A DNA stretch of 63,616 nt, the filler included, from Perkinsus chesapeaki ATCC PRA-425 (Eukaryota; Protista; Perkinsozoa), in the NCBI GenBank assembly GCA_013115145.1. It is 8 parts of 8 records of this genome, joined end to end, with 100 filler letters (N's around TTAATTAATTAA, not from the genome) between each part and the next. Parts side by side here need not be neighbours in the genome. Positions count along the whole stretch, not along the records: positions 22,760 to 41,916 come from JAAPAO010000646.1; positions 42,017 to 51,919 come from JAAPAO010000923.1; positions 52,020 to 56,070 come from JAAPAO010001325.1; 5 more parts are not named here. One strand, 5' to 3'. The translations under genes were made by a program, and so were the position numbers. Of the stretch, positions 28,900 through 52,103 are shown one piece after another. The notes under the pieces are model-generated. The model had not been told where the DNA came from and made no database searches. It was given only the letters and a program-made list of their open reading frames with translations. Each line of letters begins with the position of its first letter. The stretch's first letter is position 1.

Positions 28900-30543
28900 A
28901 TGCGGGATGTTAAATCGATCATTCGGGCGAGCGCTAAATCACTCCCCTCTTTGCCTCCGACTGGACATCAAACGCTGCATGCGCTGAGGAGTCGAAACAG
29001 GGTCTCCTAATAAGGGTTGAGAAAACTCAAGATTGCAAGATTTCTGTTACTCCTGTCAATGTTGAAGCCTGTAGTAGTCCTACTCGCAGATAAGGGAAGT
29101 GATGTTGGCCGTACAGGTATCGGTCGGAGGGAATGTGGTGTGATTGGATGGCTGTGACGACGAGGAGGTTGCTGGGAAACTGACCAAAAATTTAGGAAAA
29201 TTTTCGAAAATTTTCGTAAAATTCCATATGTACTAGGGCGATTAGGCAAGAGGTTCTGATAAACCCGTAGATTTGATGGTGTTGTTCGATTGAATACGAT
29301 AGATTGTGTGAAGCTGGTCGAAGTATCTGGATTCGATCATGCGATCGATTTGGTAATAAACAAATATAACACTTCTCATGGCAGGCACACCAGACGGCAA
29401 CACCACTCTTGAAGTTTCCCTCCGTCGAACTATCTCCGTAAGAGTCATTGTTGGGGCGCGCGGGAAATTTTGTCTGAAAACGCCGCTGGTGAGATTCTAT
29501 CCAATAACCACTTGATCACCCTTGTTGGGCAACTGGAGCGGCAGGAAGACTCATTCGTCTACCTGAAAATCTTGTTATCTTGCTCTCACTCGCATTTTCT
29601 TAATGTACCTTCACGATGGGCGGCCGCACAAAGATGGGGTACACTTTTGGCATGCTGAGCAAGAGTGGCTTCCAGGGCCTGAAAAGGAGTATCTTAGGTC
29701 GAAGCGTGGTTTTCGTACTTAAAAGCGACCGAACTATTTTCACTTTTGGTGATACGTCTCTAAGACGCCATCGAGCTTCGCTTTTCTCTTCATTTCGGCC
29801 CAGTCGGTTCAGCGAATCGCAAACTTCGCAGCGCCTACAAGTTGACTTAATTCGTATCTTGTAAGCTTCAAGCTAAGATACGCCTTACAAAATATCGCTC
29901 GCTTCCTCCAAGCTGAGCCACGTAGGGTATTTTCTCTGAATTATTTTTTGCACTTCCGAATTGGAATTTCTTTACCATTAAAATGCTCGCCTGGGCTTTG
30001 GTCGTCCCTTCTTTTTTCGAGGTGCTCTGAATGCGGAGGTTCGATCCCCAACGACTATTTTTTTAAACTTTATTTCCTCCGTTACCTGACTCCCTTCGCT
30101 CCGCCCGGCCGCAGCTCGAGGCACCTAAATAACCTACTTTGCATCTTGCGCAGTCAACCTCAAGATTCTTACAATAGATTTACGAAGCTGATTCCTGCTC
30201 CGCTCCGCTGCGCATTTTCGTTCTATTTTCCTCTTGATTTGTTCGATGTGGTGCCTGACATCAAATCTTGGTCATCTTACCCGATCTTGCATTTCCTCAA
30301 CGCACTGGCTCATTATAACGCGTCGAAGCGCGGCAGCATTCCAAAGTCGACGGCGGTCTCCACGGTCCGACTGCGCATCAGATTCTGAGAATCCTCGCTT
30401 GAAGCGTGCAAGATCTGAATTAGCTTACCATGCGAATACACTTTTCCTGCGTATAGGATCTGTGGCGGCAGCAGCGGCGGTCCCTCCGCCCCCAAGCAAG
30501 TGACCTCAGGGAAATTAAAATCCGCCATATCCATAGAGCGCAA
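28900..30543 (-). CDS. Hypothetical coiled-coil/basic protein, multi-exon; ends approximate
   Basis: In-frame joins across introns 30255-30305 and 30027-30085 (RRVIMSQ|HHIEQIKRKIERK). Confidence 0.5.
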
Positions 30544-30774
30544 GGCCGACCTATTTCGTATCTTACTCCCATAAACCCAAGATACCCCAACTCAAAACCT
30601 TTTTTATCAGAAATGTCACAGCGGAGCGAAGCAGTTTTTTCAATTTTTCATCGTCTTTAAGTGTTTCAGTAAATTTTATTCTCCTCCTTACTCGGATGCA
30701 GCGTAGATCTTGGCAGAGGCTTCAACTCTCTGAACGTTTTAAACTGCGTAAAAAATTCCGACAGCGTAACGTTA

Positions 30775-48500: not shown

Positions 48501-50561
48501 TATGTAATATTTTTCCGAAAACTATTTTCTTGGTGAAAAATTGTCTTCAAGTTCGTCTTTAGGGTAAGTGAAAGGTCGTCGCTTCAAATCCCGAGGAGGC
48601 GTCGTACATCCCCGAAAAAAATCAGGATATCTTTTTTGTTTTTCCCGTAGGACAAAGGACCTTGCTTTGGAAAGTATTTACGCCACGGAAGAGCAATTTC
48701 ATAAAAATTGTCTTTCAGTCGATTTTTGTCGGAAGGAAATCATGCCGAAGAAAACCTGTTTTCCGGAAAATTGCAGAAGTTGGGTGAAAGAAAACTTTGT
48801 TTTTTGTCAGATACATTCTCGAAGGGGCATGGGATCCTCGCGATGTTTTAACTCGGAGTGAATTCATTGTTATATTTGTTATTACCATAGCCTATATAGC
48901 AGAAGGGATGATTGTATCTATTGTATTGGGGTGTATATTATGTTGCATGTAATAAGATATTCTTCATAGTGCGCAATTTTAAAGATATTCTTCATAGTGC
49001 GCAATTTTAAAGATATTCTTCATAGTGCGCAATTTTAAAGATATTCTTCATAGTGCGCAATTTTAAAGATATTCTTCATAGTGNNNNNNNNNNNNNNNNN
49101 NNNNNNNNNNNNNNNNNNNNNNNNNNNNNNNNNNNNNNNNNNNNNNNNNNNNNNNNNNNNNNNNNNNNNNNNNNNNNNNNGTGCGCAATTTTAAAGATAT
49201 ATGAAGTAAATTAGAGTTAATTCAAGGCATATCTTTATCATCCAGATGGCGCTCTTTTTTCCCTAAAGCTCCCTAAAACCCGATTTTCCTGATTTTTTCC
49301 ATAAATTTTCCTTCTTTTTTGTCAGGTATTTTACCGTAAGATATGCAGCATCTCCTCTGGTGATTCTCCCAACCGACGCTCGAAGCACTCAGGCTCGCAC
49401 TCGACAGAATTCAGCAGCTATCTCTAAATATTACAAAGATCATACCATCATTGTTGTGAGGTCGGTAAAATATTTTTTTCCGGAAAATTTAAGATTTTTT
49501 TCAGGACGATTTGTTCACAGTTATTTTTCGGGACGTCTGCATCGATCAAGAAAGCTGTGAAGGATATTTCCGGTGGAAACACCACGGCTTTGGTGTTCGA
49601 CCTCGGTTCGGTCGAATTCTCGGATGTGAGCGCTCTTGTAGCGATAGGGAAGATTCCAGGAGGAATCGATCAAGTGGGCGAGCGAAAGATAGAGTTGATA
49701 ATCTGCAATGTTAACGAAGAGTTGAAGTCTCAGTTGAAGAGATCGAGAGACGCTCATTTCATTCCCAAGGACACGCGGATATTCTCGGAGCTGGATTTGG
49801 GGTTGCAGTGGGCGGAAGATACGTGTCTGCTGGCGGATGGATTTGCAGTGAATCCGTCGATTAAGGGAAGTATTTCTGAGAAAAAATTGGTGGGAGAAAT
49901 TTTCGGAGATGTAAAATTGGCGAAATTGTGGCGGAAAATATTTATAAAAATTAAAGTGAGTTGTGGTGAAACGGTTTACCAAGAAGGAACGCTTGCGAAA
50001 GGATTGTATATTGTGGCGCGCGGTCAATTAAGTTTGTATTCTGGAGCTGCGAGGATCCATACGGCGATTCGAGGGGACAAAGGACCGGATATCGGAATAG
50101 CTAGACGAGTCGGACCGTATGGTGTGCCGAACAGTCCGGCAGCATTTCGTGGCGCGCGACGGACGCAAGTCGTTCAAGCTGGAGATGTACTATGTGAGAG
50201 AGCGGCTTATGGTGCATGCGCGCATACGAGGAGTTTAGTGGCTGATGAAGATGGGACGGAATTGCTGTTATTACCCCGAGATCGCTTGTTAAGATTAGAG
50301 CATGAAGAACCGTCACTCGCCATGAAGTTGCATAGAGCTTTGGCGATGAGAGCCTCGGGGATTTCGTGTGAGAAAGCAGGAATTTCCGGGCGCGCAAGAA
50401 TTGAGAGTGTGTGCTCTGAAGGGGTGAATGAGGATGATGATTTGATAAGTCGACTGCACGGTTATGGTGGCGGGAATTCACTTTTGTTGGTTCCGAGCCG
50501 GCGTGAGAATCTTTTAGCTCAACCGTGCACTGATGGACGAATGCCACCAGTCTCGGTGTGA
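45520..50561 (+). CDS. SulP-family transporter with STAS and cNMP-binding domains (yeast Vsb1/YGR125W-like architecture); start uncertain
   Basis: TM exons (GILSGFLV, EATAGGELNMQSEL...NL..G..GG), STAS VFDLGSVEFSDVSAL...ELDLGLQWAED, cNMP VYQEG...LYIVARG. Confidence 0.85.
48953..49200. repeat. 28-bp intronic minisatellite AAAGATATTCTTCATAGTGCGCAATTTT (N-gap 49084-49180)
   Basis: Perfect tandem units beginning immediately after the GTAAT donor at 48949. Confidence 0.95.
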
Positions 50562-52103
50562 TTGTGTTGTATTTATATTGTACTTGTTGTATTACGATGT
50601 GTCTACAATCTACTTCAAAACGTATCTTCACGCTTCAACCTTTGATATTTGCGTTCAGTCTGTAATTATTTTCAGGTGTTAATCATTTTTATGGAAATGT
50701 CATCCGCGGAGATTCCGATGGAAAAGAAGACTTTTGAGAGGCGAAGCAGGTTATAATTTTGGGGCGCGTGAGAAAATTTCATATCGTCTCGTGAAATGCC
50801 AGACACTCGGTGACTCTAGTGAGTAACTCACAGTTTTCTGGCAAGGAATATTCATCGAAATATTTTCCTTCTGAATCACATTTTCTCAAAAACGTGACTT
50901 CGATACGAGGAAGAGAGAGAAGACAGCAGCATTTCGTTCGTATATGATATACAGTGCATCACGACCTGGATATTCACAGGGTCAGTTGGTCTGGTAATGC
51001 CATTGGCATCATGCCAACTCTCACGACTCGATTGTATAACCACCAGCCTGAGTGCAGGAAAGTTACGCCTGCGTGCATGGCTTCTTCTTCTATTAATTAT
51101 GACCGGATCACAACGACACATCGGCTGTCACGAAGTGGGCTCATCACATCTTGTTCTACCGTAATAACGTGAGGTATTGGGTGGAGTATACAGCGTTGGT
51201 TAAGAAGGCTGGGACCGGGATCGAGCTCTCGCACTGACTGTTCGGGGAACCGTTTAACTCTGCGTTCCGCATGCTGGAAATTAGCGATGTTCACGGATAT
51301 ACATGGCAAGGAATCCTCGCCGAGGATAATGTCCGCTCTGACGGTATTGTCGCACAATGGTGGAGCCGATCATGGAAAGGTCGGGCTTGGCTAAATCTCC
51401 TCACCTGTCACTCGTGAGGAAATTTAAACGATCCATCAGACCGGGCGCCAACTGCTACTTGGTAGCCAATGGCGTGTTCGGGGGCAGACTCATCGTCGGA
51501 ATCCGATGACTTCGGTCCCACATCGGTCTGGGACGGGTACGGTGCAGAACAAGGCAAGCCCGATTGGTGGATGTGCTTTACTAGATACTTACGATGGCGG
51601 GTGACTCCGGCAGTCCCGTCTACTTTTTACATATCGAGAATGACATGCGGCATTTTGGCTGCCACACTCAGAGCAGCTCTGAGGGGTTAGGCTATGCCAT
51701 AACGTCACCAAAGCAACTGAACGGCGTGTCCATGTTTGAGCATAAGCTTAATATAAATAAGAACAGATTTGTGTGACCTGCGAACAGCCATATCACCAGC
51801 TGCAACACGAACTAAGTTATCGCTGGGCGCATGGAACGACGAGCGAGCGCACGGTGTGGCCAAAATTCAAAGTGCCCCGAAAATTTAACTCAGTATGTGG
51901 AATAGGTTCAAACGAAAATNNNNNNNNNNNNNNNNNNNNNNNNNNNNNNNNNNNNNNNNNNNNTTAATTAATTAANNNNNNNNNNNNNNNNNNNNNNNNN
52001 NNNNNNNNNNNNNNNNNNNATGACGCTCGCCGTGTACTTTTGGGAATAAACAAGCCACAACGTGAATGTTATGCTACCGTGTATTACACGGCCTCTAACT
52101 ATA

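Follow-up and report, generated by a model that had tools for sequence, protein, structure and literature searches.

What kind of element is the short inverted repeat that recurs in and around the genes of the clam parasite Perkinsus chesapeaki? We examined a 63.6-kb stretch of its genome (eight contigs joined by spacers; referred to here as the window), in which a preliminary description had reported at least seven copies of a 28-bp quasi-palindrome, GTATCTT-N14-AAGATAC, plus a partial copy at 47222. All eight stretches lie where they had been reported, and the fixed geometry is real. The proposed size is not: the quasi-palindrome is the right-hand portion of a longer, asymmetric unit (at least 39 bp), which is dispersed in the genome in both orientations, has near-identical copies in unrelated surroundings, and occurs in part within a coding exon. 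Copies are named here by the start of the palindrome (e.g., 30141, 30558, and 48279), and the coordinates of the unit run further left.

The window contains nine full copies (29854, 30141, 30389, 30558, 33048, 33600, 33982, 48071, and 48279) and three partial copies (29689, 47222, and 50622), all confined to two gene-rich contigs (22760-41916 and 42017-51919). Exact GTATCTT-N14-AAGATAC occurs at two places, 29854 and 30558, a number reached in none of 100 shuffles, and seven matches with at most two mismatches were found (0.31 expected). In a matrix scan, nine matches scored 22.8 to 38.9 bits, compared with a maximum of 16.9 in 30 shuffles. A scan that ignored the arms detected the same nine full copies, with ATC and GAT intact in all of them, and leave-one-out recovery was 8/9. 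The spacer scan suggested in the preliminary description gave the predicted spike within the window: nine half-site pairs at spacer 14, four at 11, and zero or one at each of the other 39 spacers between 0 and 40, with a half-site matrix trained on the copies themselves. The original list of seven copies was incomplete and uneven. One copy (29854) is exact, two (33600 and 33982) have one mismatch, and 48279, 33048, and 30389 have two, three, and four, respectively; 50622-50649 is not a 28-bp copy, being one base short (13-nt spacer; decayed right arm; end at 50648), and the full copies 30141, 30558, and 48071 and the partial copy 29689 had been missed.

The extent of the unit was set by conservation on either side of the palindrome. 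Across the nine full copies, the 11 columns to the left carry 11.5 bits (null, 3.1 ± 0.7; maximum, 6.6 in 20,000 draws), and the 11 columns to the right carry 3.9 bits (P = 0.15). The layout is a left module (YRASCTA-N-T-NN), the half-site GTATCTT, a 14-nt core, and the inverted half-site AAGATAC. YRASCTA occupies positions −11 to −5, and RASCT is present in 7/9 copies (background, 0.4%); its RASC word recurs at the end of the core. A MAFFT alignment of the nine copies is gap-free, with 11 invariant columns and an information content of 49 bits (from nine copies, uncorrected). We considered the two RASCT words as the target site duplication (TSD) of a Dada-like insertion and rejected this, since the variable letter agrees in 6/9 copies, which is not significant, and conservation extends outside the second word. 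A hidden reading frame, suggested by three invariant left-module columns 3 bp apart, was likewise discarded because of in-frame stops in the consensus and in several copies. The copies are clustered: a span of 1 kb holds 5 of the 12 (P = 0.004, computed for the two host contigs). As an observation made after the fact, neighboring copies form facing pairs with their right arms outward (29689-29881, 30389-30585, and 48071-48306), spanning 193, 197, and 236 bp around exons.

Gene context was established from deposited models, which were compared, wherever this could be done, with the proteins of P. olseni and P. marinus; all other introns are marked here as inferred. The deposited P. chesapeaki proteins P0005 and P0014 match the window letter for letter through GT-AG introns, and P0001 matches it at 93%. 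Sister-species proteins back only the two sulfate transporter introns, and 30125-30172 and 30385-30428 rest on one deposited prediction. In the plus-strand gene for a SulP/STAS/cNMP sulfate transporter (46913..50559; P0005), the plus-strand unit 48268..48306 fills a 48-nt intron (48262-48309), and the P. olseni protein skips exactly that stretch. The minus-strand unit 48071..48109 lies at the 3′ end of a 308-nt intron (47809-48116), 7 nt before the acceptor, and the plus-strand partial unit 50622..50648 (left arm and core, with the decayed right arm) lies in the 3′ flank of the gene. The second host gene (29519..31220, minus strand; P0014) is hypothetical, and its model may merge two genes. 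Here, unit 30130..30168 (plus; divergent core) fills a 48-nt intron (30125-30172), and unit 30389..30427 (minus) fills a 44-nt intron (30385-30428), with its left module overlapping the GTAAG donor. Unit 30547..30585 (plus; exact arms) occupies the 3′ end of a predicted intron, and the acceptor annotated for that intron (30551) is located inside the left module. Unit 29843..29881 (plus, antisense to the gene; palindrome, 29854-29881) lies in an inferred candidate intron of 54 nt (29835-29888) and within a 407-nt intron of the deposited model. The partial unit 29689..29709 (minus; core and right arm) lies in an inferred candidate intron of 40 nt (29679-29718) and scored 22.2 bits (null maximum, 18.7 in 60 simulated windows). 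Three minus-strand units complete the set: 33048..33086, which ends 14 bp upstream of the ATG (33034) of a minus-strand open reading frame (ORF), in its 5′ flank or leader; 33600..33638, whose right arm would provide the GT of an inferred candidate intron of 46 nt (33600-33645); and 33982..34020, in an inferred candidate intron of 45 nt (33982-34026) with an uncertain donor.

In the three protein-mapped introns that the unit fills, it occupies 39 nt of 44 to 48 nt. Relative to the transcript, the units in the four protein-mapped introns are sense at 30389 and 48279 and antisense at 30141 and 48071, which points to an element acting at the DNA level rather than the RNA level. We rejected the idea that orientation sets the place of the unit in the intron, since the unit is long enough to fill an intron and 48071 lies at the 3′ end of a long one. 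U12-type or AT-AC introns, suggested by the look of GTATCTT, were also rejected because GTATCTT occurs in the interior of the mapped introns, on one strand or the other, and these introns have GT-AG ends.

The partial copy at 47222 lies in a coding exon rather than in an intron. This copy (47222..47242, minus; core and right arm), within exon 47146-47249, scored 25.1 bits under a matrix trained without it, against the null maximum given above. The encoded residues are GSCVHS in the window, AACWNN in P. olseni, and QACWTN in P. marinus, with no gap and no change in exon length. Relative to P. olseni, five of the six residues under the copy are changed, compared with 3/29 in the rest of the exon (Fisher P = 0.001, with the span chosen post hoc). 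A bare consensus 14-nt core without arms (31103..31116, minus) lies in a coding stretch aligned to the protein of a relative, P0015, and coincides with residues changed relative to it. A B-box-like intron module at 30862-30908 also appears to be retained in this relative, at 57% protein identity: P0015, an unspliced ORF, reads through the same position and encodes a comparable peptide, a hint that an intron module can be ancient and conserved.

Dispersal beyond the window was evaluated with contigs of run X1, which represent other loci of the same genome and do not count as independent support, since the window's DNA may itself derive from X1. Nineteen contigs match 48030-48330, and 18 of them do so only in part. 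The partial matches start at 48266 to 48272, reaching as far as 13 bp past the left edge of the palindrome, and most of them end at 48304, with loose letters beginning in AC, the end of the right arm. One contig reproduces 48268-48310 at 43/43 bases with unrelated flanks, and a second match about 1.1 kb away on the same contig has two differences in 38 bases (36/38), again with unrelated flanks. Given that a model with independent columns predicts about 1e−4 perfect copies among 7,000, the 43/43 match requires recent copying, and the matches confined to the unit indicate that it is dispersed and recently copied. Overall, matches in other contigs are 38 to 47 nt long with unrelated flanks (loose-end agreement, 0.4 to 0.65); joints or loose ends fall at or near unit ends at 29854, 29881, 33600, and 33982. 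Two other contigs match 33600-33645/6 with seven to eight differences, and others match from the first base of intron 48262 with five differences in 43. Across 8.8 kb, 84 of 109 X1 contigs fit in part only, a figure that includes other motif families. By extrapolation from 9 to 12 copies per 63.6 kb, X1 (43.5 million letters) would contain some thousands of copies.

The copies differ from each other at 33% of sites, and the pattern of these differences is informative. Under neutral star decay from one master, 4.4 invariant columns would be expected, compared with the 11 of 39 observed (P ≤ 0.0004); the left module alone, which played no part in the original selection of copies, has 3 invariant columns of 11 (0.46 expected; P = 0.003). 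Four-gamete combinations are present in 63 of 120 informative column pairs, a number that column shuffles also give (61 ± 5) and that none of 1,500 matched neutral trees attained (mean fraction, 0.10), although a neutral tree can yield invariant columns. Neutral star and tree decay thus do not reproduce the variation. By distance, 10/25 pairs at ≤5 bp and 53/95 pairs beyond have four gametes (no significant decay; P = 0.18). The conservation profiles of the two arms mirror each other (r = 0.84; permutation P = 0.02), and ATC and GAT are invariant. Once full units and tandem arrays are masked, solo half-sites on the two host contigs exceed expectation 2.5- to 6-fold (AAGATAC, 21 versus 3.6 expected; AAGATAT, 18 versus 5.6; AAGATTC, 16 versus 6.5), and control words on the same masked contigs are not enriched (AAGATAA, 6 versus 5.3; AAGATAG, 4 versus 2.9; AAGATGA, 3 versus 4.2). 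Of the earlier suggestion that one factor may read an ATCTT/AAGAT half-site shared with other modules, the sharing is supported at the level of the word.

From the sequence patterns, we infer protein binding, selection, a copying route, and a role for the unit. We give a probability of about 0.5 to the reading that it is a putative multipart site on double-stranded DNA for one or more DNA-binding proteins, loosely maintained and spread by short templated copying or overwriting. Two like domains would read the ATC/GAT half-sites 21 bp apart (center to center), i.e., two helical turns, further protein contacts would be made on the core and the left module, and the degenerate columns would be free to change. 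The dimeric site proposed in the preliminary description is compatible with this spacing and with the invariant, mirror-symmetric columns, although a plain dimer would leave the asymmetric core and the left module unexplained. New copies would come from short templated copying or overwriting instead of cut-and-paste transposition, possibly seeded at the abundant solo half-sites. In a genome with introns of 45 to 50 nt, such a unit would nearly fill an intron, with splice signals borrowed from the unit ends; its likely job would be chromatin or transcription control inside gene bodies. Myb/GARP-type domains, which we take to read AGAT, are a lead only. The AP2 domains of Perkinsus and of apicomplexans are described as related, and TGCAT as the word bound by several such domains of Cryptosporidium (PMC4117751); the core of the unit resembles this word (again, a lead only), and the literature yielded nothing specific to Perkinsus beyond AP2 domains as a candidate factor. 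A much bolder extension, which we regard as doubtful, is that the tiny introns of Perkinsus are cassettes for a small vocabulary of long putative protein-binding modules, written even into exons with amino acid changes by templated overwriting seeded at solo half-sites, and forming a gene-body chromatin or transcription code in this sister lineage of the dinoflagellates.

Several points weigh against a maintained protein site. Only nine full copies are available, and most matrices were trained on them. The copies display the position-specific constraint and independent columns expected of a protein site, but neutrality is not rejected when columns recombine freely, a model under which 10.8 columns should be invariant (observed, 11). 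The hairpin counts given below constitute a weak positive signal for pairing of the arms. At the exonic copy, P. olseni and P. marinus proteins themselves differ at two of the six residues, so the patch is variable anyway. The remaining points come from runs X2 to X4 (one sample), which cover 25300-34090 and 48111-48330 with a second haplotype or lineage about 10 to 13% divergent from the window. Its sequence is gap-free across 30389 and 48279, and both sites are therefore occupied there. The orthologous sites of 30558 and 48071 are unaligned: 95 other letters stand in place of the 30558 stretch, and the record stops short of 48071. At 48279, differences from the second haplotype affect 6 of the 32 unit positions that are visible (19%), 2 of the first 6 intron bases, and 8 positions in 120 nt of adjacent exon (5/40 third positions), in a comparison in which 16 of 21 differences are listed and the right arm lies outside the readable part. 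One change falls on a column that is invariant in the window. The only countable ortholog is thus without sign of purifying selection; the unit changes at about the synonymous rate, which lends no support to selection, and one ortholog does not have enough sites for invariant and degenerate columns to be told apart. Each of the six new letters is also seen in other copies, a result equally compatible with tolerated degeneracy and with conversion.

The explanation closest to these points has no binding role at all: short templated repair or gene conversion tracts would shuffle the unit among thousands of introns, sometimes overwriting exons, so that the family would behave like a recombining population. 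Such neutral short-tract patching fits almost as well as a protein site, and we regard it as a real if lesser possibility. It accounts for the invariant count under free recombination, for the near-synonymous divergence of the unit between haplotypes, for changed letters that were all already present in other copies, for the existence of a 43/43 paralog while the ortholog differs, for an exonic copy without length change, and for partial copies that break near module borders. Its cost is that tracts would have to be short enough to nearly abolish linkage inside 39 bp among copies as divergent as these; four-gamete pairs show no significant distance decay. It also leaves the mirror-symmetric conservation and the letter-specific enrichment of solo half-sites without a reason.

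Creation of the introns by insertion of a tiny nonautonomous transposon, an introner or a miniature inverted-repeat transposable element (MITE) now decaying, seems unlikely. It would explain why the unit nearly fills three protein-mapped introns and overlaps or abuts their splice sites, and why contig matches run from the first base of intron 48262 and across the candidate intron 33600-33645; introners lacking TIRs (terminal inverted repeats) and TSDs, down to 30 nt, are also described (10.1101/2022.06.06.494994). Sequences similar to these introns do recur at unrelated loci in other contigs, at places that may or may not be introns. The similarity tracks intron boundaries with offsets of 1 to 6 nt in the 44- to 48-nt introns, but not at 48071, 33048, 50622, or the exonic 47222; distances to splice sites vary among copies, and one copy sits deep in a 308-nt intron. 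Of 27 copy-boundary tests for flanking direct repeats, 25 gave a longest repeat of 0 bp and the other two gave 2 bp, leaving no TSD longer than 2 bp at three boundaries. The arms are not the ends of the unit, as conservation continues at least 11 bp past the left arm and paralog matches start at 48266 to 48272. Among the matches listed, the second haplotype has neither an empty site at the sites covered nor a precise skip of an intron. Star and tree decay are rejected, and the exonic copy shows no insertion. The internal position of the arms, the short flanking repeats, and the lack of an empty site among the matches listed also leave the minimal TIR element of the preliminary description unsupported; the opposed pairs enclose exons, one of them conserved in sister species, and are therefore not MITE bodies. 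An RNA-level element, i.e., a pre-mRNA hairpin or splicing signal that helps define 45-nt introns, appears very improbable. The arms are complementary, and GT, GTAAG, and branch-like words are available within the sequence. Paired cells make up 77.8% (72.8 ± 2.1 in shuffles; reached by 7/500), and the covariation score was reached by 14/500 shuffles. However, RNAalifold found no consensus pair among the copies, pairing is broken in 22/99 cells, and the four two-sided changes each occur in one sequence, covariation counts of a kind that often arise from relatedness alone; moreover, both orientations, flanks, and an exon are occupied, and the left module lies outside the stem.

Searches for a parent sequence or outside relatives gave little. 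Pattern scans of metagenome and viral contigs returned no match to the repeat. Rfam at gathering score detected three tRNAs only in the window, and at E ≤ 10 over 29500-34100 gave five subthreshold matches, none of them credible. The copies bear no similarity to the window's four tRNAs (P = 0.37 to 0.75), and the only likeness to a parent RNA is a weak, gapped one to the published spliced leader (PMC3101222), with two short blocks common to several copies (mean local score, 15.1 versus 11.2 ± 1.2; P = 0.006 before correction for five RNAs tried and for related copies), which is a weak lead.

Other short modules accompany the unit. A second family (ATCTTG...TTGCATTTCCTCAACGC-like) occurs in both orientations at 14215, 26238, 29030, 29590, 30287, 38203, 38479, and 39672; X1 contig depth in the bin 26182-26475 is about 10 times background, which indicates that this family is genome-wide too. 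Tandem and solo CGCACTAT-AAAGATWY modules are present at 13109-13568, 23858-23997, 48954-49083, and 11720-11743, and the 23858 array contains ATCTT-N11-AAGAT pairs, a second fixed geometry of the same half-site. A palindromic ATCGATCA-N-TGATCGAT module is found at 14349, 29330, 39829, and 47444, often near a GATAC word. At 25861-25902 and 47716-47758, GTATCTT and AAGATAC or TAGATAC arms are separated by 28 to 29 nt, and one pair ends right with GCTAAGATAC; these are possibly rearranged relatives of the unit. The word TTTCGTGGCGCG / TTTCCCGCGC, which we take to be E2F-like, occurs in introns and coding sequence (31021-31032, 50145-50156, 50380-50395, 33489-33500, and 47119-47130), and where it is coding, neighboring residues differ from those of relatives.

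Two further observations concern the genes of the window. The deposited sulfate transporter model begins late and omits exons seen in sister-species proteins; the regions 45634-46972 and 47146-47441 are supported by P. olseni, P. marinus, and Symbiodinium proteins. At 52104-55854, two long ORFs without introns (612 and 544 amino acids), with CxxC motifs and no Pfam match, come after a tRNA-Phe-like sequence whose 5′ part is altered, and a similar ORF follows a tRNA cluster at 1964-2581. The 52104-55854 region may be a Dada-type transposon; Dada elements of P. marinus are described as targeting tRNA genes (PMC3706591).

The unit bears on gene control in perkinsids and dinoflagellates and on what creates or fills tiny introns. 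As a 39-bp sequence whose invariant and degenerate positions are known, it can serve as a defined probe. If it is a protein site, it would represent a new class of long intragenic sites; if it is spread by neutral patching, it would reveal a mutational process that rewrites codons from intron templates. We found no description of it in the titles and abstract openings of the Perkinsus intron, repeat, and chromatin literature, in a search that did not extend to the majority of subscription papers or to the supplementary files of the introner survey; the main text of that survey (10.1101/2022.06.06.494994) does not name Perkinsus, which its supplementary tables may list.

Among known systems, introners (10.1101/2022.06.06.494994), including the introner elements of Amoebophrya (PMC7789003), share with the unit similar short introns at unrelated loci, tolerance of opposite orientations, splice sites partly carried by the element, and, in some families, the lack of TSDs and TIRs. 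In contrast to introners, the similarity does not run from intron end to intron end in all copies of the unit, the inverted repeat is nonterminal and without a TSD, splice sites are canonical, variation is unlinked rather than tree-like, and a coding exon of unaltered length contains one copy. Like the spliced-leader relics of Perkinsus (PMC3101222) and tRNA-derived intron modules, the unit is a short piece dispersed in Perkinsus DNA, but its match to the spliced leader is gapped and covers about 13 nt. It shares with MITEs a short, noncoding, dispersed nature and 7-bp inverted repeats, but these do not bound the unit, and neither TSDs nor empty sites were seen. REST/RE1 and CTCF sites are long protein-binding sites dispersed by duplication and transposons. 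Their high information content, which needs copying to arise, their orientation independence and fixed spacing, and their mixture of degenerate and invariant columns all recall the unit, which is about twice as long, has three modules, makes up nearly whole introns, and would be read by a factor that is putative. On sequence grounds, the unit fails the tests for a MITE and appears to behave most like a protein-binding site spread as a repeat.

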